UHGV virus genome: UHGV-0123923
Length of the DNA stretch: 40,997 nucleotides
Reading direction: 5' to 3' (one strand)
From: a virus
The notes below the pieces were generated by a model that worked only from the letters and a program-made list of their open reading frames with translations, had not been told where the DNA came from and did no database searches. The position numbers and the translations under genes were made by a program. Numbering within the stretch: position 1 is the stretch's first letter; each line of letters opens with the position of its first letter. This document shows, piece by piece, positions 2,155-33,930 of this stretch.

Positions 2155-3575
2155 TTCTTACCTCGTCTCTTCATGTAATTAAGCAACTCTTCCTGGACCG
2201 ATTTCTTCTCGTCAGTACGCGAGGCAACAACCTCGTCCAGCGTGTCTTTAGCAACGATGTGATAGATGAACACTGGTCGCTCGTGGCCCGCCTGCTTCTG
2301 GCGCACCGGGCCTATACGCTCGACAACCTGCAAATAGTGCTCAAGGTTCCAGCCTTGCGAAATAAACGCCAGATGATGTCCGCCGTCCTGTAAATTCAAG
2401 CCATGGCCGGCTGACGCGGGGTGCACGCATAGGATTTCGATTTCGCCACGGTTCCACGCTTCCATCTGCTTATTACCCTTGGCACCTTTGGCGAACGCCT
2501 GCGCCTGCGGGAATCGCTTAAGGATGCGCTCCAGTTCGTGCTTGAACTGATAGGCCACCAGTAACGGCGCGCCCTGTAACTCATCAACAATTGACTCCAG
2601 CGCATCCAGTTTCGTGTCGTGCACTTTCTCCCAGTCTTTGGTTGCTTCTCCGTCGTCACCCGTCACATACACGGCACCGGAAGCAATTTGCAAGCACTTT
2701 GACGTCTTTGCCGCCGCGTTAGCGGCTTCAACTTCTCCGCTCTCCAGTTCTGCGAATAACTTTTCCTCCATATCTATGTACGCCTGACGTGCTTTCTTCG
2801 GCAGGTCAATTTCAACAGGGACGATAATTGGCGCTTCGCAACCGAACCACTCAGCGGCGTCAATCGTGAGACTAATGTCCTTCATCTTCTGATGGATTTC
2901 ATTATCCGCACCAGGGCGCGCATGATACTCACGCGCCATCGCTGATTTGCCTTTCTGTACCGAGTTAAACCAGCGGTCGGTGAATGCTGTGTATGAAGAA
3001 CCGAGGCGCTCACCCGCGTCGATAAACCAGTTCTGGCCCCATAAGTCCTTGAGGCCGTTCGGCGACGGCGTACCAGTCAGGTTAATGAAACGCTTAACCT
3101 TACCGAACGCAACTTTACTTAGCGCCTTCGCCCTCTTGCTTCCACCTGAACGGCTGCGGAATGATTTCAGCTTCGTGCTTTCGTCGGCGACGATAACGGT
3201 AAAAGGCCAGTCGTCTTTGCCGTAGTAGTCAATCAGCCATTCGATAACTTCGTAGTTTGTACACACCACGTTAGCGTCTGATTCCAGCGCCGCGATGCGG
3301 CGCTTCTCTGAACCGGTTGCGTCAACGACACTCAGACAGGGAAAGTTCCATTTCTCTTGCTCTGCGGGCCACGTGCCAGACGCAACACGCAACGGGGCGA
3401 GGATTAACACGCGGTCGTCGTCATTAAGTTGCCCATTGCGGAACAGTCGGTTTAAAGCCCACAGGACACTGCCCGTCTTCCCGGCGCCCATGCTTGCCCA
3501 TATGTTGCAGCGATGGTGCCGCAACATGAACGAAGTCATGAGCTTCTGGTACTCGCGCCTTTGAAACTTACTCAT
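2151..3575 (-). CDS. SNF2/DEAD-like superfamily 2 helicase
   Basis: Walker A MGAGKTGS, DExx box VIVADEST, C-terminal helicase domain; 474 aa. Confidence 0.8.
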   Translation of the reverse strand: MSKFQRREYQKLMTSFMLRHHRCNIWASMGAGKTGSVLWALNRLFRNGQLNDDDRVLILAPLRVASGTWPAEQEKWNFPCLSVVDATGSEKRRIAALESDANVVCTNYEVIEWLIDYYGKDDWPFTVIVADESTKLKSFRSRSGGSKRAKALSKVAFGKVKRFINLTGTPSPNGLKDLWGQNWFIDAGERLGSSYTAFTDRWFNSVQKGKSAMAREYHARPGADNEIHQKMKDISLTIDAAEWFGCEAPIIVPVEIDLPKKARQAYIDMEEKLFAELESGEVEAANAAAKTSKCLQIASGAVYVTGDDGEATKDWEKVHDTKLDALESIVDELQGAPLLVAYQFKHELERILKRFPQAQAFAKGAKGNKQMEAWNRGEIEILCVHPASAGHGLNLQDGGHHLAFISQGWNLEHYLQVVERIGPVRQKQAGHERPVFIYHIVAKDTLDEVVASRTDEKKSVQEELLNYMKRRGKK

Positions 3576-3763
3576 TTCAGCACCAGAACTAACTCTTTAC
3601 GCCCGAACGCCGTAACGTTACCAGTTACATCTTCGATAACCAGTTTACCGTTCGACTCGACGAACACCGTATCAACGGCAACAGGCTGGCGTGTCTTAAC
3701 GTTGAAAATCATGTCACCCGGTACGATGTCACGTGCTGGTTTGCGGTCATATTCGTGTTTCAT
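3572..3763 (-). CDS. hypothetical protein (63 aa)
   Basis: AAGGA RBS; stop overlaps helicase start. Confidence 0.5.
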   Translation of the reverse strand: MKHEYDRKPARDIVPGDMIFNVKTRQPVAVDTVFVESNGKLVIEDVTGNVTAFGRKELVLVLK

Positions 3764-3793
3764 TTCTCAATTCCTTATATTGTTGGTGTAGGA

Positions 3794-4081
3794 CTAACTA
3801 TAATAGTTCGCTATTAGGTCGTCAACCTGTTTAAACGAACCAACGACAAAAACATTCGCACCACGTTTACGCATCCGCTCATGTTCCCGTAGCTGGTGCG
3901 GGTCTGGCTTCGTGTTCTCGTCTTTCTTAACCTCGACGAACCAGACTATGCCGCCGGGGATAATTACCAGCAGGTCGGGGGCGCCCGCTCTATTTTCGTA
4001 CGACAATTTGCGTACGAGGCCTCCCAGGGCCTCGAATCGCTCTTTTGCGTATTCCTGCACGCGCCCCTCAGGCGTACTCAT
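3794..4081 (-). CDS. VRR-NUC domain nuclease
   Basis: 95 aa; GGGAGGGG RBS; motifs PDLLVI...VEVK consistent with a PD-(D/E)XK VRR-NUC fold. Confidence 0.7.
   Translation of the reverse strand: MSTPEGRVQEYAKERFEALGGLVRKLSYENRAGAPDLLVIIPGGIVWFVEVKKDENTKPDPHQLREHERMRKRGANVFVVGSFKQVDDLIANYYS
3797..3825 (-). promoter_or_regulatory. sigma70-like promoter (TTGACG-N17-TATAGT) with operator motif, embedded in the 3' end of the VRR-NUC gene
   Basis: minus-strand -35 is the reverse complement of 3820..3825, -10 of 3797..3802; AATAG(3802..3806)-N4-CTATT(3811..3815) palindrome in the spacer. Confidence 0.45.
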
Positions 4082-4294: not shown

Positions 4295-6464
4295 AACGCT
4301 TCATCTCCGCGCCTTCTGCTACAAGAGGGAACCCCTCGGCCCACTCTGGTAATTCGCACATCAATCGTTCCAGTTCTGCGACATTGTATTCTGGTAAATC
4401 TGGTGTCTCGCAGATAATCTCATCGTGAACATGAAGCACAATCGGGTAGCCGTTTGCTTCGACGTTCAGCAGTGCATTAGCCAACAAATCACGGCACAGC
4501 GCCTGAGTGCAGTTTTCCACCAGTTTACCAGAGTAGGTGTACTGGAAGCCCCACTGACGGGTTAACTGGTTTTCGCCCTGGTACTTGATGCGCACGTTGG
4601 TAGACACCTTCCCGTCTTCGTCTGTCTCTTTCGACACGCTTAACCCGACGCCAGGGTATGACATAACTCGACCAGACGGCAACGTCATACGCAACCACCA
4701 ACCGGCGACTTTGTTGCCGTTGTTGTCCGTTTCTACGTTGCGCGAAAACTTAACTCCCCGCGGCCCTGCGGTGAACTCTTTGCCCGGATTGCGGATAGCT
4801 GCCATAGCTGCGTCTTCAATATCCCGCCAGAAAGCTACTGTTTCCGGGTGTGACTCACGCCACATACGCTTGATAGCGTCGCAGGTACGCCACACTTTCT
4901 TATCAAGAATATAAGATGGTCGGTCATCATTTTCACCTGGACGTGGTGGTCGCTTGGCTTCCTGAATACGCGCCCACTCATATCCACGTGCGGTAGCAGC
5001 CCAGATGTGGTCGGGGAAAGTCCCGTCCATTGTTTTTGCCATATCAACAAGGTCAAGGCCGAGGTTCTTGGCGAACTGTACGAATGCGCCGACACCACCC
5101 GCGTAGCCAAGTCCAAGTTCGCATGCCTTACCAATCTGGCGTAAGTCTTTACGTTCTTTCTTAATGTAATCCGGCTCCATGCCGAACATCTTGCCTGCGG
5201 TTACGCAGTAAATATCCAGCCCGGCACGGAACGTATCAAGCGCGGTTTCTTCGCCAGCCAGCCACGCCAAACCGCGGCCTTCAACGTTCGAGTAGTCGGC
5301 GACGACAAACTTATACCCGGCTTCCGGGATAATGCAGCTGCGAACCGTAGATGCCGTTAGCTTGGCTACATCAAAACGGCGATGTGCTCGGCCCTTAAGT
5401 AATGCTGAAATACCTTTATCCAGTTCATCATCGTGATAGTACCCACGCGCCAGGTTCTGCGGCTGGAAGCCTTTACCCGCAAATCGTAACGTACGTTTAG
5501 CTCCACCATACTGGATGCAACCGCGACGGCGGTCGTCAGACGAGCGGCCTAACAGCAGCGGGTTATATTTCGTTGACGCAGTGGATGCCGCCCCGAGGCG
5601 CATTTCTATAATCGTGCGGGCGTCGTCCGGTAAATCATCGTCAGCAAGCAGGTCGTTAAGCGTAGACTTCTGCGCGTTGTGGATGCGATGCGCAGGCGCC
5701 AGTTCACGCAGAATCGGCAGGAAGTCCTTACCTGTAAGCGAGCCGCCGTATTTACGTTGGGCTTCTTCCTGTAACTGTGCCTTGTGTTTCTCCACAGCTT
5801 CAATTGCGGCTTCCGCCAGCGCAACGTCGACCTTAAACCCGCGGTCGTTAATTAACTGGTCCAGTTCCAGTACACGGTCTTCGAACTCGGAGTTACCCCA
5901 ACGCGGCAACTTATGGAACACTTCACGCATCGCGGTGATGTCGCTAACGGCGTACTTGATGAACAGCGCCCACTCATCCGGGTGCGTTTCAGCAGTGTAG
6001 CGGCGAATTTTGTAGTTCTTCGGCGTCGGTTTAGAGAAACGCTGAATAAGCGCTTTGCCTCGTTTGTCTTTCGCGTTGTCTGCAGACACGCCAAGCACTT
6101 CGCACAATGCGTCGAGTGAACCCGGCAGCGCGTGACGAAACGCCCAAATCATCGTATCAATGGTGTTGCTTACGGGAATATCAAAACCCCAGCAGTGCTT
6201 CATGATGAGTCTGTCGAACATTGAGCCGTTGTGCCACACCATCTTAATACGGCTGTTTGGTTTCACCAGACGGCGTAACGCGCGGTGCAAATCACCCGGC
6301 ATGTCGCTGCCGTTGGTGCAATCCCATACCTGCACAGGCTCGTCGTCAAAAGCATATGTGCAGATTAGAACTTCGGTGGTTGGATGTTCGGCGTAAGCGT
6401 AGGAGCCGACTTTCTTCAAATCGGCTTCTGAGAATGTTTCAAAGTCTAAGAACAGGTAACTCAT
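4284..6464 (-). CDS. family A DNA polymerase with N-terminal 3'-5' exonuclease domain
   Basis: 726 aa; exo motif FLDFETFS; polymerase motifs DYSNVEGRGLAWLAGE (A), RQIGKACELGLGYAGG (B), VLHVHDEIICE (C). Confidence 0.9.
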   Translation of the reverse strand: MSYLFLDFETFSEADLKKVGSYAYAEHPTTEVLICTYAFDDEPVQVWDCTNGSDMPGDLHRALRRLVKPNSRIKMVWHNGSMFDRLIMKHCWGFDIPVSNTIDTMIWAFRHALPGSLDALCEVLGVSADNAKDKRGKALIQRFSKPTPKNYKIRRYTAETHPDEWALFIKYAVSDITAMREVFHKLPRWGNSEFEDRVLELDQLINDRGFKVDVALAEAAIEAVEKHKAQLQEEAQRKYGGSLTGKDFLPILRELAPAHRIHNAQKSTLNDLLADDDLPDDARTIIEMRLGAASTASTKYNPLLLGRSSDDRRRGCIQYGGAKRTLRFAGKGFQPQNLARGYYHDDELDKGISALLKGRAHRRFDVAKLTASTVRSCIIPEAGYKFVVADYSNVEGRGLAWLAGEETALDTFRAGLDIYCVTAGKMFGMEPDYIKKERKDLRQIGKACELGLGYAGGVGAFVQFAKNLGLDLVDMAKTMDGTFPDHIWAATARGYEWARIQEAKRPPRPGENDDRPSYILDKKVWRTCDAIKRMWRESHPETVAFWRDIEDAAMAAIRNPGKEFTAGPRGVKFSRNVETDNNGNKVAGWWLRMTLPSGRVMSYPGVGLSVSKETDEDGKVSTNVRIKYQGENQLTRQWGFQYTYSGKLVENCTQALCRDLLANALLNVEANGYPIVLHVHDEIICETPDLPEYNVAELERLMCELPEWAEGFPLVAEGAEMKRYAK

Positions 6465-7203: not shown

Positions 7204-7232
7204 ACTATAATAGCTAACTATTCGGGTGTCAA
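7204..7232 (-). promoter_or_regulatory. sigma70-like promoter (TTGACA-N17-TATAGT) with operator motif
   Basis: -35 is the reverse complement of 7227..7232, -10 of 7204..7209; AATAG(7209..7213)-CTAA-CTATT(7218..7222). Confidence 0.45.
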
Positions 7233-8744: not shown

Positions 8745-9013
8745 ACCCTGTTCTCCCACTGGTCAATTAAATGTCGCGTCTTATGGTCGCAATGCATAAC
8801 CCAACCATACATCGACTCGAAGACATAAAAGTCAGGTTTTGCGAAAGTCGTGCGCTTAATCTGCGACACGTGGCGGTCTATATCTTTAGGCCGTGGTACT
8901 TTGCCTAAGTACGCCATCTCTTCCATCTGGTGTGCCCCGGACGGCGCACGCAATAACCATAGCGCATCTGTGTTATCCCGCCTGTCCACGGCGCGGTAGA
9001 GTTGGTAAATCAT
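8741..9013 (-). CDS. hypothetical protein (90 aa)
   Basis: GAGGGT RBS; stop overlaps next start (ATGA). Confidence 0.5.
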   Translation of the reverse strand: MIYQLYRAVDRRDNTDALWLLRAPSGAHQMEEMAYLGKVPRPKDIDRHVSQIKRTTFAKPDFYVFESMYGWVMHCDHKTRHLIDQWENRV

Positions 9014-9056
9014 AATCCCGACCCTCGGTTAAAGCGGCCCGAAGGCCGCGGGATAG

Positions 9057-9578
9057 TTATTCTTCTTCGAAATACTTGTTCTTGATTGCTGTCAGGCGCT
9101 CCAGATACTCAGCCAGGTCTTCGTCTTTAATCGCTGCAATCTTCATCTTCTTACCGGTAAACTCTTCCAGCAGTTCGTCAGAATCGTCGCACGCAGCATC
9201 GCTTGGGCCTTCGTTAATCGCATCGTCGATAGCCTGAATCTGGTCGCGCAGAGACTGGTAATCGACTTCTTCTTTCTCTTCTTCCGGCTCTGGCGTTGGT
9301 TCCTCTACTTTGTCCTTACGCGGCTTGCGCTTCGGCTTCTCTTCTTCTGCTGGTTTAGTGTCGACGATGTCTTCACCTTCAACCGGGATTTCTTTCGCCT
9401 TCTCGACTTCTTCAAGTGCTTTAGCCAGTTCTTTTTTAACTGTCTCTACCCCAGTTACCGCGACGTCAACAGTCAATTCACCTACAGATTTGCTAGTCGG
9501 TTGTTTCACACTGTTTGCAGCAATCAGTTCGTGGGCGACTACGAAACGTTCCAGTAATACCAAGAATTTCTCTAACAT
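9057..9578 (-). CDS. highly acidic, low-complexity early protein (173 aa)
   Basis: AGAGGAGAG RBS; first gene after promoter 9609..9637; long Glu/Asp-rich stretches with a central Lys/Pro-rich patch. Confidence 0.55.
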   Translation of the reverse strand: MLEKFLVLLERFVVAHELIAANSVKQPTSKSVGELTVDVAVTGVETVKKELAKALEEVEKAKEIPVEGEDIVDTKPAEEEKPKRKPRKDKVEEPTPEPEEEKEEVDYQSLRDQIQAIDDAINEGPSDAACDDSDELLEEFTGKKMKIAAIKDEDLAEYLERLTAIKNKYFEEE

Positions 9579-9608
9579 TTGTTTCTCTCCTCTCGTTTGG
9601 TATGGGCT

Positions 9609-9637
9609 AACTATAATAGCGAACTATTCACTTGTCA
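9609..9637 (-). promoter_or_regulatory. sigma70-like promoter (TTGACA-N17-TATAGT) with operator motif
   Basis: -35 is the reverse complement of 9632..9637, -10 of 9609..9614; AATAG(9614..9618)-CGAA-CTATT(9623..9627). Confidence 0.5.
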
Positions 9638-9641
9638 ATGG

Positions 9642-9671
9642 GCTTTTCTAAAATAATTAATATGGTACTAT
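9642..9671 (+). promoter_or_regulatory. operator motif with weak promoter upstream of the Cro-like gene
   Basis: AATAT(9658..9662)-GGTA-CTATT(9667..9671); TACTAT -10 at 9665..9670; poor -35 (TTTTCT). Confidence 0.35.
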
Positions 9672-9702
9672 TCACATATCAACTGACTAAGGAGTAATTG
9701 GC

Positions 9703-9918
9703 ATGCAACCATCTGAACTAGGTATCCGTGTAGAGCAACGCCGTAAAGAACTCGGTATCTCCCAGCGCCATCTGGCTGTCCTGGCCGGTGTTTCCCAAGG
9801 CGCAATTAACCAGCTTGCACTCGGTGTAACTCAGGACGTCCGCCCGGCGACGCTGTTTAAACTGGCGGAAGTGCTTGAAGTAGACGCCAAGTGGCTGTCG
9901 TTCGGTGAAGGGGCTTAA
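9703..9918 (+). CDS. XRE-family helix-turn-helix regulator (Cro/CI-like)
   Basis: 71 aa; AAGGAG RBS; HTH signature LGISQRHLAVLAGVSQGAINQLALG. Confidence 0.8.
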   Translation: MQPSELGIRVEQRRKELGISQRHLAVLAGVSQGAINQLALGVTQDVRPATLFKLAEVLEVDAKWLSFGEGA

Positions 9919-9934
9919 CGCCCCTTTCTTTTTA
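9909..9934 (+). terminator. intrinsic terminator after the Cro-like gene
   Basis: AGGGGC-TTAA-CGCCCCT hairpin with the stop codon in the loop, followed by TTTCTTTTTATT. Confidence 0.55.
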
Positions 9935-10129
9935 TTGCACCTTTATCGGGTATCTTTTGCGAAACTTACCTAACCCGCAGTATACGCTGTAAGCCTCTGT
10001 GTAACTGTACACAACATGATACCCGCGCCCGTAAGGAACTACGTTAAGAACTTCCACTACTTCGCCTCTGTGGTTGGTGTATTTATTACCTTTAAGTTCG
10101 TCACTTACTTCTTTAAATTTACCGCTCAT
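9932..10129 (-). CDS. hypothetical protein (65 aa)
   Basis: start overlaps primase stop; no recognisable motif. Confidence 0.4.
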   Translation of the reverse strand: MSGKFKEVSDELKGNKYTNHRGEVVEVLNVVPYGRGYHVVYSYTEAYSVYCGLGKFRKRYPIKVQ

Positions 10130-12393
10130 TCCAAATCCTCCTCTGTCACTGTCAGCATCTCATTCGGTTCATATATTGTCTTCGGAATCTTGTTATCAGT
10201 TATCCGGGTGTTCAGCCTGTAACGGCCAGGGATTATCTGATTGTTTTCGTCAGTCCCCGGAACAAGATACCCAGCCTCAACCATTTTCTTAATCTTCCCG
10301 CGTTCTATGGCTTCTTTGGAGTTAAACGCCTTTGCATTGGGGTCAGACTGTGCGAGCTTATTAGCGGCGGCGACTGTGATGCCTTCGTTGCCGTTGTAGG
10401 TTCCTTCCGCCAGTTCAAACGCCGCCAGTATCGTGGCTTCTGAACTGTTGACGGCGTTCTCTATGGTTTTACGTACGTTTTCTTTACCTTCTTTCGTCAA
10501 CCCTTCTTCCCGCTCTTTCTCCTCGTCAGTCTTGAACGGCTCGAAACCCCACGGCATTAACACAAGTGCCTTATGCGGCTCCGGCAGGTCGAGGTTTACG
10601 ATTGTGCCGTATTCCTCCGTGCTACCGAGGAACTCAACCGCACGGTACTCTTTCGGCGGCGGCGCTTCACGGAACTGTACCGACTCCAGCACCATGCCAA
10701 CCGTCTTCTGTTGCGGCCCGTGCTTAAATTTCGAGTGGTATACATTTATCTGACGGTCGGTAGCTCGTTCGATTGTCAGTTCCACGTCGACGCCAGCATA
10801 CAGCGCCCCACTGCCGCGGGCTTTCTTTCCGCCCTTCGGCGTATGGTGGACAACGCCTACCGCAGCTTTAGTCGCGTCACGTACTTCTTTCAGGATGGCG
10901 ATAACCTTACCCATGCCGATTGCCGTTGATGAACTGTTCTCGTCGAACTTATCAATCGTCAGGGCTAGCGTCTGGTTGAGGGTGTCGAACGCAACCATGC
11001 CGATGGGTTCGTCACCCGCAGTTTCACGCATCAACTTAATCAGGCTTTTCAGTTTTCCGACTTCGCCCATGTCGATGACATGTACATAATCTTTACCTTC
11101 CTCGCCATATTTAGCCGCGAGCGCATCGATACGGGTGCGTGTAGCTGCGCCGCCCTCACCGTCGATATAGAAATGGTGGCAACGCTGGGTGTCAGCACCC
11201 GCAAACCGGTATCCGGCGGCGCTCAGGTACATCATCCCCAGCGTATAGAAGGATTTATACGTACCGGACTCCCCGACGATATCCCATATGCAATCCGACG
11301 GCATGTACCCTTCAACGACGAAATCAGCCTTTACCGGTTCCGGTAACTCGTCCTCCTCTGAGTCCTCGTCGTCTTCAAGGTCGTCCAGGCTGCAAGAAAC
11401 AGATTCACGTGCACCCCATCCGATGGCCTCTGCGACTTCACTGAACGGCAGCCCCGTCGCATCGCACGCATACTTCCACACCTCTTTCGGTGACATGCCT
11501 TCGGTCGCCGTAATGTCAGTGTCGTGAATCATGGTTACGTTCGGCGCCTCATATCCCTCTCGCGGGAAGCACAGCAGGAAGTCATCCGGGCGCGGCGTCG
11601 GGTCGCTGTAGTTTTCTGCGTGTTCTGGCGTAGCTGGCATCTTAAGGCCTCGTGGCGTCATGATACCGCCATACTCGAACGCCAGTGCCTCGAACGCGTC
11701 GGTAAACGCGGTGCGCAGTTCTTCCGGTATCTGGTAATCCGATGCGCTGCTAACGTCAACGGCGGGGATGCCTTCCAGTAACTCGTCCGGGTCAATCAGG
11801 TCGTTGCGGCGTGACCAGATAACGGTAGAGCCAACCGGAGGCAGGTACATCGGTTGCGAAAGAGTGAACCCGCTGCGGTCAGCACCCATGCTTTTGAAGA
11901 AGTGTTCCAGCAATCCATGGCGAACACGGATGATGTCACCACCTTCGACCGGACGGGCCAGCGGCATGACGACGCGAAAGCGCGGGGCCTCGTCGGTATG
12001 TGATGCCGTGGTATAGATACACATGCCCCGGCGGCTGCGTTTAACTAAGCGCACCGCTTCCTGATACTCTTCTGGTGTTGCGCTGTCGAAGTCCAGATAC
12101 GCCAGCGACGATTTGCTTACAGACGCGTCACAGCGATAGAAAAAGCCTTTACGCGCTTGCTTAAAGTCGCCGGTTTCCGGGTCTTTTACAGTGCTGTGCG
12201 TCGAGTCGCACGCGGCGGTGATATAACCGGGCGCGGTCTTCGGGTTAATTCCGTCACGGACAGCATCGAGTGGCTGGATTAACTCTTTCAGGTCGTCCAG
12301 TGTTGCCGTGTGTGTGGTTCTGACGTTTATATCCTTTTTCTCAGCCCGCGCGTTGCGACGCGACCACGAGTAGGATAAAATTACATCGGACAT
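10126..12393 (-). CDS. primase-polymerase (AEP-like) fused to a RecA-like ATPase (primase/helicase)
   Basis: 755 aa; GAAGGAAAT RBS; N-terminal LAYLDFD and SHTDE motifs; C-terminal Walker A GESGTYKS in a DnaB/RepA-like ATPase domain. Confidence 0.7.
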   Translation of the reverse strand: MSDVILSYSWSRRNARAEKKDINVRTTHTATLDDLKELIQPLDAVRDGINPKTAPGYITAACDSTHSTVKDPETGDFKQARKGFFYRCDASVSKSSLAYLDFDSATPEEYQEAVRLVKRSRRGMCIYTTASHTDEAPRFRVVMPLARPVEGGDIIRVRHGLLEHFFKSMGADRSGFTLSQPMYLPPVGSTVIWSRRNDLIDPDELLEGIPAVDVSSASDYQIPEELRTAFTDAFEALAFEYGGIMTPRGLKMPATPEHAENYSDPTPRPDDFLLCFPREGYEAPNVTMIHDTDITATEGMSPKEVWKYACDATGLPFSEVAEAIGWGARESVSCSLDDLEDDEDSEEDELPEPVKADFVVEGYMPSDCIWDIVGESGTYKSFYTLGMMYLSAAGYRFAGADTQRCHHFYIDGEGGAATRTRIDALAAKYGEEGKDYVHVIDMGEVGKLKSLIKLMRETAGDEPIGMVAFDTLNQTLALTIDKFDENSSSTAIGMGKVIAILKEVRDATKAAVGVVHHTPKGGKKARGSGALYAGVDVELTIERATDRQINVYHSKFKHGPQQKTVGMVLESVQFREAPPPKEYRAVEFLGSTEEYGTIVNLDLPEPHKALVLMPWGFEPFKTDEEKEREEGLTKEGKENVRKTIENAVNSSEATILAAFELAEGTYNGNEGITVAAANKLAQSDPNAKAFNSKEAIERGKIKKMVEAGYLVPGTDENNQIIPGRYRLNTRITDNKIPKTIYEPNEMLTVTEEDLE

Positions 12394-12451
12394 GTTATAT
12401 TTCCTTCAGCAAGTAATTTGGCCTCGGCGTTCACCGCGTCGGGGCTTTCTT

Positions 12452-12727
12452 TTATTCCAGGTCGCGGGAGATATTACCCTCGGGCACCAACACTTTTCCA
12501 ATACTTCTCGCTTTCTCTGTAATAGGCGTCGCTCTTGTTGCCCGATAAAACTTTCCTTTATTAAGAATCTCACCATGTCGCTCGAGCACATCTAAAGCAT
12601 GTTTGATCGGGTTTACACCGTAATTATCCAACCGGTATCTCCGAAGCCCGTCTACCGTAAAAGCGCCGTTCGCTTCGGTCAGTCTGCGTGCACACATTAA
12701 TATGTGTTTCTGGAATTTAGTTAGCAT
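12452..12727 (-). CDS. hypothetical protein (~91 aa)
   Basis: start placed at the ATG behind a TAAGGAGA RBS; the longer upstream extension in the ORF track is likely spurious. Confidence 0.4.
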   Translation of the reverse strand: MLTKFQKHILMCARRLTEANGAFTVDGLRRYRLDNYGVNPIKHALDVLERHGEILNKGKFYRATRATPITEKARSIGKVLVPEGNISRDLE

Positions 12728-12896
12728 CTTTAACGTTCTCCTTAATCCACGCCTCCACAGTAGCGCGGTCAAAGGTACCTGGCTGACGGTAGCCGTTGAT
12801 AACGCGGCAACACTCCGGGAACTTTCCTGACCGAAGCCAGCGATTAAGAGTCATAGGGGAAACCCCGATTAAGTCTGCTACTTCTTTCTGTGTCAT
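12717..12896 (-). CDS. AlpA/excisionase-like small HTH DNA-binding protein
   Basis: start placed at ATG (MTQKEVADLIGVSPMTLNRWL) behind a GAGAGGG RBS; first gene of the primase operon. Confidence 0.55.
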   Translation of the reverse strand: MTQKEVADLIGVSPMTLNRWLRSGKFPECCRVINGYRQPGTFDRATVEAWIKENVKDAN

Positions 12897-12925
12897 TTTA
12901 CGCGCCCTCTCTATCAAGTGAAACA

Positions 12926-12954
12926 ACTATAACACCTACAATAGACAAACACAA
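12926..12954 (-). promoter_or_regulatory. candidate promoter of the primase operon (TTGTGT-N17-TATAGT)
   Basis: -10 is the reverse complement of 12926..12931; AATAG(12940..12944) and CTATT(12956..12960) arms flank the -35. Confidence 0.3.
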
Positions 12955-12958
12955 CCTA

Positions 12959-12986
12959 TTGACAAAATAAAATGTAGCTGTAAAAT
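12959..12986 (+). promoter_or_regulatory. candidate rightward promoter (TTGACA-N16-TAAAAT)
   Basis: TTGACA 12959..12964, TAAAAT 12981..12986 preceded by TG; AT-rich surroundings. Confidence 0.4.
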
Positions 12987-13053
12987 CAACGTATCGAATG
13001 GCTTTAGTTAAGAATTACTTAGAAACAATATTCTTAAGTCTCGGGTACTTAAA

Positions 13054-13073
13054 GCCCCGCCATAAAGCGGGGC
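13054..13073. other. conserved GC hairpin element, copy 1 (GCCCCGC-CATAAA-GCGGGGC)
   Basis: 7 bp perfect stem; same stem and flanks recur inverted at 24547..24566. Confidence 0.5.
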
Positions 13074-13317
13074 GCTAAATAGTACTCTTGGTAACGTTAG
13101 TATCTAAGTTTCCTCAAAGTAACAGCAAGTGGCAAGAAAGCCCCCGTCTATTTAAATTTTACCCTCCTTCATAAGCCACTGATAATTAAAAGTTTCTATA
13201 GTTGCCGTAAACGTGGAAGAGAGTACTTCACTTCGCTGGGGTGGGCTAACGCCCACCCACTGCGTTGCGTACTCTTTTAAGAAACGAAAGAATCACAACG
13301 GCAACGTAACTATTCTC

Positions 13318-13346
13318 TTGCACACCCCAACATAATAGGATACTAT
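13318..13346 (+). promoter_or_regulatory. promoter (TTGCAC-N17-TACTAT) with operator motif, for the rightward small-gene block
   Basis: TTGCAC 13318..13323, TACTAT 13341..13346; AATAG(13334..13338)-GATA-CTATT(13343..13347); ~36/39 nt identical to the reverse-strand promoter at 33012..33040. Confidence 0.55.
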
Positions 13347-13380
13347 TCACTTATCGAAACGAGACAGAGGAGTGAGGGTT

Positions 13381-13572
13381 ATGTTTAAACGTGGTCAGTT
13401 GGTTAAATACTCCGACGATAAACACGGCATAATTGAATTAAAATCTGCTTTATTTCCAGGAAAGTACGTAGTTACCGTGCAAAATGTGAGAGGAGTAAAT
13501 TCACAAATATACGTAGCGGAGGAGAACTTAAAACTCATCGGCAACAATTTTAAATTTAAAGGGGCGAAGTGA
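13381..13572 (+). CDS. hypothetical protein (63 aa)
   Basis: ATG behind GAGGAGTGAGGG RBS; the ORF track's upstream GTG start is unlikely. Confidence 0.5.
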   Translation: MFKRGQLVKYSDDKHGIIELKSALFPGKYVVTVQNVRGVNSQIYVAEENLKLIGNNFKFKGAK

Positions 13573-14296: not shown

Positions 14297-14430
14297 TGTT
14301 CAATAGTTTGGGATTTTACTGAGTGACTTACGCTGCTACACAGCAGCGTACAACTTTAACTTAGTGTCGTCAAAAGGCGACACTTTCATCAAACGCAACA
14401 ATCGAAGCGACTATTGCAGGAGATGCAACA

Positions 14431-14611: not shown

Positions 14612-14640
14612 TTGCACACTGGGATAGAATAGGCTACTAT
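14612..14640 (+). promoter_or_regulatory. promoter (TTGCAC-N17-TACTAT) with operator motif
   Basis: TTGCAC 14612..14617, TACTAT 14635..14640; AATAG(14628..14632)-GCTA-CTATT(14637..14641). Confidence 0.55.
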
Positions 14641-14670
14641 TCATTTACACGAGCGAGAGGAGAGACAGAG

Positions 14671-17556: not shown

Positions 17557-17577
17557 TCTATCTTCCGCAATGACTAG

Positions 17578-17606
17578 TTGACTATTACTCTCACACCAAT
17601 TATATT
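17578..17606 (+). promoter_or_regulatory. promoter (TTGACT-N17-TATATT)
   Basis: TTGACT 17578..17583, TATATT 17601..17606; ACTATT half-site overlaps the -35. Confidence 0.5.
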
Positions 17607-22684: not shown

Positions 22685-22705
22685 AGCCCCGAAAGGGGCT
22701 TTCTT
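22685..22705 (+). terminator. hairpin/weak terminator after the portal gene
   Basis: AGCCCC-GAAA-GGGGCT followed by TTCTT. Confidence 0.45.
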
Positions 22706-22710
22706 ATAGT

Positions 22711-23787
22711 ATGCTATTAACTTTAGCGCCACAGGGTTTATCTATGAGCTTACTTACATCACTAATCAGCCACCAGATATGGCTGCAACGCACCGCATCC
22801 GGTGAGGTGAAAGACCTCGCGCCGTTCATTAAGGAGATGCGGGACGAAATCAAACGGCAGGTGCTGCTATTCAGCGACGACGGTCGCAGCACTGCGCGAC
22901 TGAATAAACTGTTACGTGACCTTGAAGAAGCACTGACAGGACTTACTGGTGACTGGCAAACAAAGCTGGCAGAAGACCTCAAGGAACTGGCGGTGTATGA
23001 AGCTGAGTGGAACGTAAAGACCCTGTCCGCCAACGTAGATGCGGAATTTGTTACGCCCACCGCCGAACAGGTGTGGGCCGCTGCTGAGTTTCAGCCATTA
23101 TCATTGAGTGGCAAGCCAGTTGATTTCACTAAACTGATGTCAGGTTGGGGTGAAACGGAAGTAGCACGTCTTGTAACCGGCGTTAAGATGGGCTTTGTAC
23201 AAGGTCAAACAACACGGCAGATTGTTAAGAATGTAGTAGGCGCCGGTGGGCTGGCTGACATCTCTGAGCGTAACGCCGCTACCGTCATCCGCACCGCGCT
23301 GTCTCACGTGTCCAACGAAGCCCGTAACGAGACGTACCGCCAGAACGACGACATCATCGAGAAGTACGAGTGGGTGTCAACGCTTGACAGCCGCACCAGT
23401 ACGATTTGCAGGGTCAGAGACGGGATGACGTGGGAAATTGGTAAGGGGCCGATGCCCCCTGCCCATCCGAACTGCCGGTCGTGCACGGCTCCGGTAATCA
23501 GTTCCGAGTTCGACTTCCTTGATAAAGGCGCAAAACGCGCGGCTAAAGGCGCGGAAGGTGGCACTCAGGTAAGCGTAGACACCACTTACTACGAGTTCCT
23601 TAAACAACAACCGGCGTGGTTTCAGGACCAGGCGCTCGGCCCGGTGCGAGGTAAGATTTTCCGTAACAGCGGTATATCGCCGGAAGAGTTTCGCGTAATA
23701 TCTGTAGATGGTTTCGGGAATCCGCTCACGCTTAAGCAGATGGCGGAACTCGATAAACGTGTTGCTGATTATCTGAAAGGGGAATAA
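22711..23787 (+). CDS. head morphogenesis / minor head protein (Mu F-like, SPP1 gp7-like)
   Basis: 358 aa downstream of the portal; no RBS at the annotated ATG, so start is uncertain. Confidence 0.55.
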   Translation: MLLTLAPQGLSMSLLTSLISHQIWLQRTASGEVKDLAPFIKEMRDEIKRQVLLFSDDGRSTARLNKLLRDLEEALTGLTGDWQTKLAEDLKELAVYEAEWNVKTLSANVDAEFVTPTAEQVWAAAEFQPLSLSGKPVDFTKLMSGWGETEVARLVTGVKMGFVQGQTTRQIVKNVVGAGGLADISERNAATVIRTALSHVSNEARNETYRQNDDIIEKYEWVSTLDSRTSTICRVRDGMTWEIGKGPMPPAHPNCRSCTAPVISSEFDFLDKGAKRAAKGAEGGTQVSVDTTYYEFLKQQPAWFQDQALGPVRGKIFRNSGISPEEFRVISVDGFGNPLTLKQMAELDKRVADYLKGE

Positions 23788-24248: not shown

Positions 24249-24253
24249 ACTGA

Positions 24254-24275
24254 AGCCCCGAAAGGGGCTTTTTAG
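24254..24275 (+). terminator. intrinsic terminator
   Basis: AGCCCC-GAAA-GGGGCT followed by TTTTTAG. Confidence 0.7.
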
Positions 24276-24323
24276 TGCCTGTGATTATTCCAGTTATTCC
24301 ACTCAATTGTAAATGTTGGAATA

Positions 24324-24366
24324 AACTATTCGAATAGTTGACTTTTCACCAAAAATGTGCTAAGCT
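24324..24366 (+). promoter_or_regulatory. promoter (TTGACT-N17-TAAGCT) preceded by a perfect 16 bp palindrome AACTATTCGAATAGTT
   Basis: palindrome 24324..24339 overlaps the -35 (24338..24343); -10 at 24361..24366 preceded by TG. Confidence 0.45.
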
Positions 24367-24546
24367 CCACCTGAGCTTGTGAAGTATGAACAAGCGACCG
24401 CGGCGCGGGCAGGTAACGGAGCGGGACGTAAGTCCTGAGTGTAGTTACGCTGACGCGTTCGGAAGGGCCATACTCTATTGCTTGTGTAAAAAGTAACTTG
24501 TTTACTGAGATTACGCCGTTTCTATGTTTAAATGATAAGGACTAGC

Positions 24547-24566
24547 GCCCCGCTTTAAGGCGGGGC
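24547..24566. other. conserved GC hairpin element, copy 2 (GCCCCGC-TTTAAG-GCGGGGC), terminator-like on the + strand
   Basis: same stem and flanks as 13054..13073 in inverted orientation; followed by TTTACTT; 24 nt upstream of the Rz start. Confidence 0.5.
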
Positions 24567-24590
24567 TTTACTTATCGAGAAAGGGGAAAC

Positions 24591-25798: not shown

Positions 25799-26767
25799 AT
25801 GTCTCTGTCAGATATGAAGGTTTATAACGACGATATCGTCGGTACCACTATCGAACTGCTTGGCCAGAAAACTGACCAGTTTAACGCAGCCTCCGGTGGC
25901 GCAATTGTACTGTCTACCGCTTCATGGCGCGGTGACTTCTCCCGTGAGTCTTTCTTTAACCAGATTGCCTCCGCTAAACGCCGCGTTGACCGTTACGCCG
26001 CTATCGCGTCTCAGGCAGCTACCGCGCTGACTCAGGGCGAGCGTGTAGGCGTTAAAGTCGCTGGCGGCTTCGGACCGGTACTGTTCGAGCCTGCGCAAAT
26101 GACCTGGCTGAACGAAGACCCGGCGAGCGCGATTCGTGCTATCTCCGAAGGGTTCTCTGACGCACTGTTAGCTGACCAGCTTAACACCGCTGTTGGTGCC
26201 GCCGTTGCCGCGGTATCAGGTCAGGCTGCACTGGTTAACGATGTATCCGCGACCGCTGGCTTGTCCCTGAACGTGCTGAACAACAGCCACGCTAAATTCG
26301 GCGACCAGTCTCAGTTGTTGGTCACTGACATCATGACCGGCGCGGCATACCACACTCTGGTGGACAAAGCGCTGACCAACGCAAACCAGTTGTTCGTTGC
26401 TGGCAACGTTATGGTTGTCGATGTTCTCGGCAAGCGTTACGTAATTTCCGACATCCCTGCGCTGTACGAAGCTGGCACCCCGAACAAGACTAAGGTTCTG
26501 TCCGTAGTTGCGAACGGCATCATCGTTGATAATGCTTCTGATATTATCAGCAACATTGACACCAGCAACGGTAACACCCGCATCCAGACCACCTGGCAGG
26601 CGGACTACAGCTTCGGCCTGAAACTGAAAGGCTACAGCTGGGACGTTACCAACGGCGGTAAATCTCCGCTGGACGCAGAACTGTTCACCGCGACTAACTG
26701 GGACAAAGCTGTTGCCGAGAACAAGCACACCCTCGGTACTCTGGCAATCGCCGACGCAGACCTGTAA
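25799..26767 (+). CDS. major capsid protein
   Basis: 322 aa after the scaffold; GAGGATAA RBS; strong terminator immediately downstream. Confidence 0.75.
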   Translation: MSLSDMKVYNDDIVGTTIELLGQKTDQFNAASGGAIVLSTASWRGDFSRESFFNQIASAKRRVDRYAAIASQAATALTQGERVGVKVAGGFGPVLFEPAQMTWLNEDPASAIRAISEGFSDALLADQLNTAVGAAVAAVSGQAALVNDVSATAGLSLNVLNNSHAKFGDQSQLLVTDIMTGAAYHTLVDKALTNANQLFVAGNVMVVDVLGKRYVISDIPALYEAGTPNKTKVLSVVANGIIVDNASDIISNIDTSNGNTRIQTTWQADYSFGLKLKGYSWDVTNGGKSPLDAELFTATNWDKAVAENKHTLGTLAIADADL

Positions 26768-26789
26768 CACGGTTAGTAGTAAAAACAAA

Positions 26790-26810
26790 GGGGCTTCGGC
26801 CCCTTTTTAC
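26790..26810 (+). terminator. intrinsic terminator after the major capsid gene
   Basis: GGGGC-TTCG-GCCCC followed by TTTTTAC. Confidence 0.7.
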
Positions 26811-26824
26811 TAGGAGAAATTAAA

Positions 26825-26992
26825 GTGGAAATTAAATACGTACCAATGCCAATTACCATCGAGCAGAAGCGCGAGTATAACCGTCAGGGGTTCCGTGTGG
26901 TAGATGCTCGTTTCGCACCAGAAGGCACCGTGGTAGAATCGGCTAAAGAAGAGACACCACGCCGCCAGCGCCGGGCGAAATCAGAGGAATAA
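26825..26992 (+). CDS. hypothetical small protein (55 aa), GTG start
   Basis: TAGGAGA RBS 7 nt before GTG; translation VEIKYVPMPITIEQKREYNRQGFRVVDARFAPEGTVVESAKEETPRRQRRAKSEE. Confidence 0.35.
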   Translation: MEIKYVPMPITIEQKREYNRQGFRVVDARFAPEGTVVESAKEETPRRQRRAKSEE

Positions 26993-26995
26993 TTT

Positions 26996-27508
26996 ATGCC
27001 GCTAATCGTGGAAGATGGGTCGATAGTACCTGATGCCGACAGTTACGTTAGTCTGGCCGACGCCCGCGCGTTAGCGGCTAATTACGGTCTTGTGTTGCCG
27101 GCAGACGATACCGCCGCAGAGGTGGCCCTGCGCAACGGTGCTACTTATGTTGGGCTTGCAGAACCTCAGATGTGCGGGCGTCGCGTATCCGCTGAACAGT
27201 CTCTGGCGTACCCACGTACAGGAACAACACTAAACGGCTTCACCGTAGCGGATAATGTTATCCCGTCGCAGATAATCCGGGCACAAGTAATCGCTGCTGT
27301 TACGTATGGTGCGGGTACTGATGTTCGGGCTAACTCAGATGGGCGTTCCGTGCAGACTGAGCGTGTTGAGGGTGCTGTGACAGTGACATACTTCAACAAC
27401 GGCAACAGTGGCGCCACAACCGCTATTACCGCTGCGGACGACGCATTACGCCCGTTACTGTGTGGTGGTCTTAACAATGGCTTCTCGTTTAACGTGTACC
27501 GGGGTTAA
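26996..27508 (+). CDS. head-tail connector/adaptor protein candidate
   Basis: GAGGAATAA RBS; position after the capsid gene; N-terminal MPLIVEDGSIVPDADSYVSLADA resembles gp6-like connector proteins (from memory). Confidence 0.45.
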   Translation: MPLIVEDGSIVPDADSYVSLADARALAANYGLVLPADDTAAEVALRNGATYVGLAEPQMCGRRVSAEQSLAYPRTGTTLNGFTVADNVIPSQIIRAQVIAAVTYGAGTDVRANSDGRSVQTERVEGAVTVTYFNNGNSGATTAITAADDALRPLLCGGLNNGFSFNVYRG

Positions 27509-32981: not shown

Positions 32982-33011
32982 TTTAAACCCCTTCATTGTT
33001 GGTGTAAGTGA

Positions 33012-33040
33012 ATAGTACCCTATTATATTGGGGTGCGCAA
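33012..33040 (-). promoter_or_regulatory. promoter (TTGCGC-N17-TACTAT) with operator motif, driving the reverse-strand accessory cassette
   Basis: -35 is the reverse complement of 33035..33040, -10 of 33012..33017; AATAG(33011..33015)-TACC-CTATT(33020..33024); near-identical to promoter 13318..13346. Confidence 0.5.
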
Positions 33041-33148: not shown

Positions 33149-33565
33149 ATGAAACTTTCTGATTTCTATTTCGAAGAGAAAGCGCTGGTAGGCAAGAAGA
33201 TGCCGATTCTGCTACCAAACGGTGAAGACTCCGGTGAGTGGCTTAATGTGGTAAGCCCTGACGCGGATGTCGCCGTTAAAGCAGGGCGTGCTTTCATTAT
33301 CGCGTACCGCCGCGGGCTGGCGCGTTTTGAAGAACTGGAAAAAGCTGCCAAAGAATCCGGCGACTATACTGAATATAACCTGGCGGTTAACGAACTGGCG
33401 GAAGACCTCAACCGACAACTCGCGGCAGAAGTCGTAAACGGCTGGAGCTTTGATGAGCCTTTCTCTAAGGAAGCGTTTAACAAATTGCTTGACCAGTTCA
33501 AAGCATTAGGTACACAGGTAGCTGCGTTCCATAACGCCGAGCGCAAAGCATTACAGGAAAAGTAG
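33149..33565 (+). CDS. tail assembly chaperone (lambda gpG-like)
   Basis: 138 aa acidic protein immediately upstream of the tape measure; AAAGGA RBS. Confidence 0.6.
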   Translation: MKLSDFYFEEKALVGKKMPILLPNGEDSGEWLNVVSPDADVAVKAGRAFIIAYRRGLARFEELEKAAKESGDYTEYNLAVNELAEDLNRQLAAEVVNGWSFDEPFSKEAFNKLLDQFKALGTQVAAFHNAERKALQEK

Positions 33566-33930
33566 ACGCGCTGTACAGGTTCGCCACCTACGAGTTCGTT
33601 GATAAGCATAAAATCAGAGAGTTTGATTCTATAGCTGACGGACACGAACAGGCGCTTATCGCGATGGGTGTAATCGATAAGAAAAAACGTGCAGCGCGAC
33701 GGGGTGGGCCAGAATGCCCGCCCCTTTTTATATCCACCTTTGAGACGTACTGCGACATTAAGTTTACGCGACACGTGCGCGAGGACGCTGTAGTATTGTT
33801 TGCAAGAGAATCCGTTACGTGGCAAGACCTGAAAGCCTATCTCGATGTTACGCAAAAACAGCTTAGCTTGTTCGAGATAGACATTATCATGGGCTTAGAA
33901 GCAATCTTTGAAGGTAGAAATCATGGCTGA
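33535..33930 (+). CDS. -1 frame extension of the tail assembly chaperone (gpT-like, expressed by frameshift)
   Basis: -1 frame is open from 33535 to a TGA at 33928..33930, overlapping the chaperone 3' end and the tape measure start; candidate slip site CAGGAAAAG at 33554..33562. Confidence 0.4.
   Translation, partial: RRAQSITGKVDALYRFATYEFVDKHKIREFDSIADGHEQALIAMGVIDKKKRAARRGGPECPPLFISTFETYCDIKFTRHVREDAVVLFARESVTWQDLKAYLDVTQKQLSLFEIDIIMGLEAIFEGRNHG

Follow-up and report, generated by a model that had tools for sequence, protein, structure and literature searches.

A dyad repeated on early and middle promoters of a K1G-like Escherichia coli phage is probably the operator of its 434 Cro-like protein

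We analysed a 40,997-nt virus genome (UHGV-0123923; "the window" denotes this whole stretch) in which a 14-bp palindrome, AATAG-N4-CTATT, recurs at promoters. Two copies, one of them imperfect, lie in the divergent control region at 9579–9702, between a leftward operon that begins with an acidic-protein gene and a rightward gene for a 71-aa protein of the HTH_3 helix-turn-helix family (9703–9918, plus strand). The evidence argues that the palindrome is the operator of this HTH_3 protein, a relative of the Cro protein of phage 434, and that the protein probably shuts down early and middle promoters through it. We infer binding by the HTH_3 protein, dimer formation, repression as the sign of the effect and its timing from sequence, and it is the position of the operators that suggests a shut-off of transcription.

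The window comes from a lytic E. coli phage of the K1G/Kagunavirus group. Region 9000–13500 is 99% identical to Escherichia phage K1G (Kagunavirus, Guernseyvirinae); among the 445 phage records that it matches, most are Salmonella Jerseyvirus or E. coli Kagunavirus. K1G has DNA methyltransferase genes between its helicase gene and ORF32, and these are missing here (window 3572–3800 versus K1G 26586–27410), and the window phage is therefore a relative of K1G and not K1G itself. No gene for an RNA polymerase, a sigma factor, an integrase or cI appears in the annotations of K1G, SE2 (Jerseyvirus) or VSiP (Cornellvirus).

An earlier reading of the window (the original prediction) had placed the palindrome at every early and middle promoter that it found, had proposed a dimeric Cro-like or AlpA-like protein as its binder, and had called for a genome-wide count against shuffled controls and a comparison of intergenic with coding placement. 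Throughout the window, the exact palindrome (AATAGNNNNCTATT) occurs six times, at 3802, 7209, 9615, 13334, 14628 and 33011, a strong enrichment over the 0.04 copies expected, and none of 100 dinucleotide shuffles reached six. Allowing up to one mismatch yields 11 copies (0.8 expected), the additional ones being at 9659 (AATATGGTACTATT), 17573, 22705, 24333 and 40114, the last of which lies in coding sequence and is probably due to chance. In a census of all 5-Nk-5 palindromes in the window, AATAG-N4 ranked first in over-representation, followed by GC-rich terminator stems. According to a curated gene map, five of the six exact copies fall in the non-coding 7.0% of the window (binomial P ~1e-5), and the sixth (3802) is within the final 22 nt of the open reading frame (ORF) 3794–4081, directly upstream of the next gene. 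The copies at 3802, 7209, 13334, 14628 and 33011 had been located correctly and are all exact matches. The two in the control region had been put one base too low (9614–9627 and 9658–9671 instead of 9615–9628 and 9659–9672), the one at 9659 is not the same palindrome but carries one mismatch, and the right half-site ACTATTC ascribed to every copy is replaced by GCTATTA at 3802.

Within the control region, operator O1 (AATAGCGAACTATT, 9615–9628) is a perfect 14-bp dyad located in the spacer of the leftward promoter TTGACA-17-TATAGT (9610–9638, minus strand), an 11/12 sigma70-type match in our promoter scan. This promoter leads into an operon encoding an acidic 173-aa protein, a DUF551 protein and a PD-(D/E)XK nuclease. 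Operator O2 (AATATGGTACTATT, 9659–9672) overlaps the −10 of the HTH_3 gene's own promoter, a putative extended −10 promoter that reads TG-G-TACTAT (9663–9671, plus strand) and has no good −35. A single T makes the TG of this extended −10 and at the same time spoils the left half-site of O2, which becomes AATAT. The TGn is retained in all Kagunavirus relatives and O2 is nearly invariant among relatives. The HTH_3 unit is monocistronic and ends in a terminator-like hairpin with a T-run (9907–9927, plus strand, from a terminator scan). The distance between the paired operators, from centre to centre, is 44 bp in Kagunavirus (9615/9659) and 55 bp in Jerseyvirus (SE2 8814/8869); both are close to whole helical turns plus 0.2, which would place the operators on roughly the same face of the DNA.

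The dyad is set on sigma70-type promoters in three registers: in the spacer, over the −10 and over the −35. Class A promoters (minus strand; dyads at 3802, 7209 and 9615) read TTGAC(A/G)-N4-AATAG-N4-CTATT-ATAGT, match the sigma70 consensus at 10–11 of 12 positions with a 17-bp spacer, and take three of the five highest ranks among sigma70-type matches of the first 20 kb. Besides the promoter of the control region, they are TTGACA-17-TATAGT at 7204–7232 (minus strand, 11/12 in the scan; operator 7209–7222), which serves the genes for the single-stranded DNA-binding protein and DNA polymerase A, and TTGACG-17-TATAGT at 3797–3825 (minus strand, 10/12; operator 3802–3815), which lies inside the 3′ end of ORF 3794–4081 and serves a 63-aa ORF and the SNF2 helicase gene. 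The label VRR-NUC, previously given to ORF 3794–4081, was not reproduced by Pfam at E<=1e-5.

Class B promoters (13334 and 14628 on the plus strand, 33011 on the minus strand) read TTGC(A/G)C-N10-AATAG-nn-TACTATT, and the dyad centre is located at about −12.5, as it is at 9659. They comprise TTGCAC-17-TACTAT at 13318–13347 (operator 13334–13347), ahead of the small rightward genes from 13372; TTGCAC-17-TACTAT at 14612–14641 (operator 14628–14641), ahead of rightward genes through the holins and endolysin; and TTGCGC-17-TACTAT at 33011–33040 (operator 33011–33024), ahead of an operon for superinfection immunity, a nuclease and a polynucleotide kinase (PNK)-phosphatase. In class C, a one-mismatch operator (ACTAGTTGACTATT, 17573–17586, reading ACTAG-TTGA-CTATT) covers the −35 of TTGACT-17-TATATT (17573–17606, plus strand), directly past the endolysin terminator, with its centre at about −33.5; the same register is found in Jerseyvirus SE2 (AATAGTTGACTAGT) and Cornellvirus VSiP (AATAGTTGCATAAT). 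The claim that the palindrome always sits between −35 and −10 is thus correct for class A, where it fills the spacer, touches one base of the −10 and is centred at about −18.5, but not for the TTGCAC-17-TACTAT units, where it covers five of the six bases of the −10.

The HTH_3 gene is itself among the units behind the operators, which further include the acidic-protein/DUF551/PD-(D/E)XK nuclease genes, the single-stranded DNA-binding protein with DNA polymerase A, the SNF2 helicase, the superinfection-immunity/PNK-phosphatase genes and the small rightward genes as far as the holins and lysozyme. Coverage is not complete. Promoter-like sites without a canonical dyad are 12959(+), 19282(+) ahead of the terminase genes, and the promoter shared by primase and a 59-aa HTH_17 protein (excisionase/BldC-like; 12717–12896, minus strand; Pfam E 5e-9), which has only AATAG-N11-CTATT (12940–12960). 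Activation of the MerR type from a spacer site was rejected, the spacers being 17–18 bp and not 19. The −35 region of class B (13318–13323, 14612–14617 and 33035–33040) is a conserved 9-mer, CTTGCACAC, that matches TTGACA at three of six positions, and an additional factor may act there.

In 36 distinct relatives, the half-sites of O1 are invariant. A comparison of 37 IMG/VR Kagunavirus loci shows no change at any of the ten half-site positions of the 9615 orthologue, whose centre varies at three of its four positions (CGAA, CTAA, TGAA, CAAA, CGAG and CTAG), and an indel alters the distance from the dyad to the −35. When distinct sequences of Kagunavirus relatives are pooled (83 for class A and 55 for class B), information peaks on the near-invariant AATAG/CTATT and is low in the central four positions. 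Orientation is free as well: the central 4 bp are inverted at 3802 relative to 9615, though both promoters have the same direction; the SE2 operators at 6458 and 8814 are exact reverse complements on same-direction promoters; and class A and class B promoters carry the flanked 18-mer TGAATAG-N4-CTATTAT in opposite orientations with respect to transcription. Because the centre and the 18-mer flip relative to transcription, the data supports a separate factor that binds the dyad, rather than a directional part of the promoter. Operators of phage 434 are likewise 14 bp long with conserved outer bases and a variable centre; the symmetric outer bases here differ in sequence from ACAA-N6-TTGT.

The HTH_3 protein resembles 434 Cro in length, sequence and predicted fold. 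Its Pfam HTH_3 match covers residues 11–65 (E 2e-11), its closest solved structure by phmmer is 434 Cro (E 4e-7), which is likewise 71 aa long, and its AlphaFold2 (AF2) model (pLDDT 79.5) has 2CRO as the top Foldseek match (40% identity, TM 0.73/0.79). Pfam, phmmer and AF2/Foldseek all identify a five-helix lambda-repressor-like domain, and the label "Cro-like" given to this product is borne out by both sequence and fold. As in Cro-type proteins, there is a single domain of ~70 aa with no C-terminal oligomerization or S24 peptidase domain. Wherever the Kagunavirus operator does not vary, neither does the recognition helix, SQGAINQL, and two operators adjoin the gene, one of them on its own promoter. 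The records of K1G, K1ind1 and Raoultella phage RP180 leave this gene unannotated (K1G 33428–33640).

Several features of the 434 system recur here: a 71-aa single-domain regulator, 14-bp operators with conserved outer half-sites and a variable central 4 bp, operators that overlap core promoter elements, and a copy at the promoter from which the regulator itself is expressed. Going by known 434 complexes, a further correspondence is the conservation of the first Gln in the recognition helix together with an A at operator position 1, which ACAA also has. Other features differ. The half-site is AATAG and not ACAA, and the 434-type immunity layout (a cI partner, a tripartite OR between divergent PR and PRM, and OL) was not found, with no cI-like gene annotated in K1G, SE2 or VSiP. 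A distance of 44 bp separates the local operators, and no fewer than five others are scattered across ~30 kb, where they lie on promoters of genes for replication, recombination, lysis and small early products. The phage group is described as strictly lytic.

In Jerseyvirus SE2, the dyad TAATAG-N4-CTATTA is kept at orthologous promoters, with a T at position −1 in 90% of half-sites. Cornellvirus VSiP contains no copy of the palindrome, exact or with one mismatch. Instead, 14-mers of the form AWTA-N6-TAWT occupy the same promoter registers, for example TTGACA-ctga-ATTATTAAACTATT and TTGCAC-atcg-gATTAGTTTAGTATT-ATAGT.

We also found the operator family beside distant HTH_3 homologues. A plain search for homologous proteins returned 20 close relatives, all apparently Guernseyvirinae, and a search seeded with the HTH_3 protein alignment reached distant relatives in unrelated, often GC-rich viral contigs. 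Some of these relatives are CI-like, carry S24 peptidase domains and are related to 434 cI. Just upstream of the distant genes are sites of the form ATTAG-N4-CTAAT, AATAG-N4-CTAAT or AATAG-N5-CTATT, and second site pairs lie 0.1–2.4 kb past their 3′ ends, as for OR and OL. We then fixed the pattern A[AT]TAG-N4/5-CTA[AT]T before fetching fresh loci by the helix signature GV[ST]QG.I.Q. In 8 of 15 distinct non-Guernseyvirinae loci, the pattern is located at most 160 nt upstream of the HTH_3 gene (0.0012 expected per locus; P ~3e-20), and its density upstream of these genes is 52-fold above the rest of the same loci. Consequently, the operator family follows the HTH_3 clade into phages that lack HTH_17 and are otherwise unlike the window. 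Calling the operator phage-specific was too strong, because its half-site and geometry are common to a wider 434-type repressor clade in unrelated phages.

A separate observation concerns six IMG/VR contigs (L094, L096, L098, L118, L120 and L158) whose CI-like proteins have an S24 domain and ~31% identity to 434 cI. Site pairs of the ATTAG-N4-CTAAT type flank the gene on both sides, and these contigs look like uncharacterized OR/OL-type immunity regions with a definable operator.

Several other factors could recognize or use the repeated element. The HTH_17 protein, as a repressor or as a promoter-loaded regulator, is a serious rival because its distribution matches that of the exact palindrome: its 444 records are confined to Kagunavirus and Jerseyvirus, the genera with the exact palindrome; tblastn gave no match to it in Cornellvirus VSiP, where exact and one-mismatch copies are lacking too; and it is 70% identical between Kagunavirus and Jerseyvirus. 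We nevertheless consider it improbable that HTH_17 binds the palindrome. Its closest solved relatives are 6AMA and 6AMK (E 0.005), which are BldC, a binder of head-to-tail direct repeats and not of dyads; sites of the HTH_17 type would be direct repeats or asymmetric elements, and the element here is a dyad. Its recognition helix takes several forms within Kagunavirus (SPMTLNRW, TRQTINNW, TRRTLNNW), where the operator does not vary; its own promoter has no canonical site in any relative, Cornellvirus keeps operator-like 14-mers in the same promoter registers without it, and it is HTH_3 homologues that the operator family accompanies into unrelated phages. The choice left open between a Cro-like and an AlpA-like binder therefore tips towards the Cro-like HTH_3 protein, the AlpA-like candidate being BldC-like with a variable helix. 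In K1G, the HTH_17 gene is overlapped by an annotated ORF in a different frame.

The repeated 20-mer could alternatively be a promoter read by an RNA polymerase that the phage encodes or by a host polymerase that it modifies. In phages fBC-Eco01 and Golestan, PHIRE finds an identical set of seven 20-mers, the motif is always upstream of transcription units, and the conserved flanks (TG...AT) reach beyond the dyad. Against this, the motif is set in ordinary −35/−10 pairs with 17-bp spacers, and its three registers and both orientations relative to transcription would not be tolerated by a directional promoter element. Neither K1G nor SE2 nor VSiP has an annotated RNA polymerase or sigma factor, and the large ORFs all have other assignments. 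We rejected the phage-polymerase promoter on the missing annotation and the variable register and orientation, and regard any reading of this kind as very improbable. Recognition of the dyad by a host transcription factor is the least probable of all, to the point of being barely credible. Nothing speaks for it directly, though ATAG...CTAT-type half-sites resemble the OxyR motif; the OxyR motif is ATAG-N7-CTAT, its spacing differs from that of AATAG-N4-CTATT, and a host OxyR-like site was rejected on this spacing. Moreover, the motif changes from Jerseyvirus to Cornellvirus, although Salmonella is a host of both genera, a cognate-looking phage helix-turn-helix gene adjoins two copies, and the same operator family appears with HTH_3 homologues in phages with other, GC-rich genomes. 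It is also possible, if unlikely, that HTH_3 binds the palindrome for a purpose other than temporal shut-off, such as homeostatic damping, immunity to superinfecting relatives, a carrier or pseudolysogenic state, or activation at some class C sites. The HTH_3 unit looks autoregulated, with O2 over its −10, a superinfection-immunity gene is among the operator-bearing units, and other members of the HTH_3 family lie in immunity regions of temperate phages; because the operator is common to two genera, the HTH_3 protein of a resident phage could act on an incoming relative. Conversely, the annotations include neither an integrase nor a CI partner nor any other lysogeny function, and the placement of operators within core promoters speaks for repression throughout. 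The sequence does not tell these physiological roles of HTH_3 apart.

Returning to temporal shut-off by the HTH_3 protein, every computational test that we ran supports one dyad operator on many sigma70-type promoters, bound by a dimeric phage helix-turn-helix protein. Six points weigh against this assignment. Literature searches on Guernseyvirinae transcripts and operators returned only genome papers, with no binding, footprint or transcript study. The exact palindrome co-occurs phyletically with HTH_17, in Kagunavirus and Jerseyvirus only. Class B promoters match only ~7/12 of the sigma70 consensus and fall under the scan threshold, and their activity is for this reason assumed. The AWTA-N6-TAWT count in VSiP (9 copies versus 2.4 expected, 7 of 9 intergenic) is indicative only, because the pattern was set after seeing the data. 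The Jerseyvirus HTH_3 recognition helix, SQSLITHL, differs from the Kagunavirus SQGAINQL while the AATAG half-site is the same, and the Cornellvirus helix resembles the Jerseyvirus one, yet its operator site changes; co-variation of helix and operator between genera is therefore not clean. Finally, a simple symmetric dimer model offers no explanation for the steady asymmetry of the flanks, TG on one side and AT on the other.

We propose the following mechanism. On phage entry, host sigma70 RNA polymerase would start all of these promoters. The HTH_3 protein would be made from its small autoregulated unit, with its extended −10, imperfect O2 and terminator at 9907–9927, and its dimers would fill the dyads and exclude RNA polymerase from all three positions (spacer, −10 and −35). 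Transcription of the units for replication, recombination and small early genes would then fall in concert, and the repressor would regulate itself. Operator-free promoters would remain active; one of them is 19282(+), ahead of the terminase genes. Operator quality, perfect in class A and imperfect at the repressor's own promoter and in class C, could order the response, which is speculation. More tentatively still, and leaning somewhat against it ourselves, we raise the possibility that one 434-Cro-like protein is the master temporal switch of the Guernseyvirinae, a relic of a temperate 434-type immunity region that has lost cI and whose operators have spread onto essentially all early and middle promoters. 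Such a switch would provide a graded, ordered shut-off without a phage sigma factor, polymerase or antiterminator, with perfect dyads at the strongest promoters, an imperfect dyad at the promoter of the switch gene and half-degenerate dyads where the −35 of a late-proximal promoter is covered. A cell that expresses the protein in trans would, on this view, be immune to Kagunavirus and Jerseyvirus, and not to Cornellvirus.

A Cro/CI-type repressor acting on palindromic operators is a textbook mechanism, and the present case is unusual mainly in that it governs most promoters of a supposedly strictly lytic phage. As proposed here, the HTH_3 protein would resemble lambda Cro as a small early repressor that lowers early promoters on accumulating and limits its own synthesis, whereas lambda Cro has a winged, beta-rich fold and only two operator clusters. 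Genome-wide sites with many copies for one repressor are known from temperate phages, namely the stoperators of mycobacteriophage L5 gp71 and the conserved inverted repeats of phiC31. L5 stoperators are asymmetric, lie inside transcription units and block elongation, and both systems maintain lysogeny; in contrast, all 7–9 sites here are dyads at core promoters, without many sites inside transcription units, and no integrase or lysogeny genes are annotated. The controller (C) proteins of restriction-modification systems, such as C.AhdI and C.BclI, are also small HTH_3 dimers with similar structures (Foldseek), palindromic boxes on their own promoters and autoregulation, but they serve a single operon, act as both activator and repressor, and use other box sequences and spacing.

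The repeat is already on record, because two genome papers list these 20-mers. For phage Golestan, seven PHIRE-predicted promoters are the same 20-mers, and two of them (TAATAGCGAACTATTCACAT and TAATATGGTACTATTCACAT) are placed before ORF48, the helix-turn-helix gene (PMC7203180 Table S4). For fBC-Eco01, seven 20-mers with the consensus tgAATAGTa-ccTATTat-T were ascribed to a "phage-encoded RNA polymerase" (PMC9825357 Table S2). These sequences are identical to the palindromic sites of the window; their annotations do not mention the dyad symmetry, the embedding in sigma70 −35/−10 elements or the link to HTH_3. New here, and entirely computational, are the reading of the repeat as an operator, its assignment to a 434-Cro-like protein and an operator family defined for a wider repressor clade.

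The operator reading would correct the annotation of "phage RNA polymerase promoters" in phages without an annotated polymerase. It would also offer a regulatory model, with one small repressor and 7–9 operators, for a large therapy-relevant subfamily with >440 sequenced relatives; the Guernseyvirinae are lytic and widely used in Salmonella and E. coli biocontrol. If it is confirmed, an overlooked regulator gene could be flagged in reference genomes such as K1G, cells expressing the 71-aa protein are predicted to resist these phages, and the promoters would provide a compact set of strong, repressible promoter-operator pairs. A[AT]TAG-N4/5-CTA[AT]T would then be the operator family of a wider, uncharacterized 434-type repressor clade in temperate phages.

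Two further one-mismatch copies are weaker candidates. The copy AATAGTTGACTTTT (24333–24346) covers the −35 of TTGACT-17-TAAGCT (24325–24366, plus strand), is preceded by the everted repeat ACTATTCGAATAGT and is not conserved in Jerseyvirus SE2. The status of TATAGTATGCTATT (22705–22718), at the start of a head-morphogenesis gene, is uncertain; an identical 20-mer is listed for phage Golestan "before ORF3".

A Pfam scan assigned the large ORFs that it covered to polymerase A, an SNF2 helicase, a primase-helicase-type AAA protein and nucleases, and we took the tail and terminase assignments from the K1G annotation. An Rfam scan of the whole window found no family above threshold. The 475-nt ORF-less gap at 12897–13371 contains a rightward 11/12 sigma70 match, TTGACA-16-TAAAAT (12959–12986), and a GC hairpin at ~13053–13078 that lacks a T-run. 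A 342-nt ORF-poor gap at 24249–24590, between the head-decoration gene and Rz, contains the promoter-like TTGACT-17-TAAGCT and a terminator (24547–24566). Its GC-rich stretch is partly conserved in Jerseyvirus SE2 with some stem-compatible changes, and this gap could encode a small or structured phage RNA; the candidate RNA 24373–24572 has no Rfam match and a fold z-score of only −1.94. In one relative (L051, the same as L015, near 11250) and six others, there is an extra palindrome copy (AATAGGTTACTATT) with tandem GGTGTAACAGGT repeats before it and the hairpin TACGCTGCTACACAGCAGCGTA after it. The matching region of the window (14300–14350) has kept the hairpin, while the palindrome has decayed (AATAGTTTGGGATT) and the tandem repeats are absent. 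The array of repeats, palindrome and hairpin in those relatives might be an origin-like or regulatory element.

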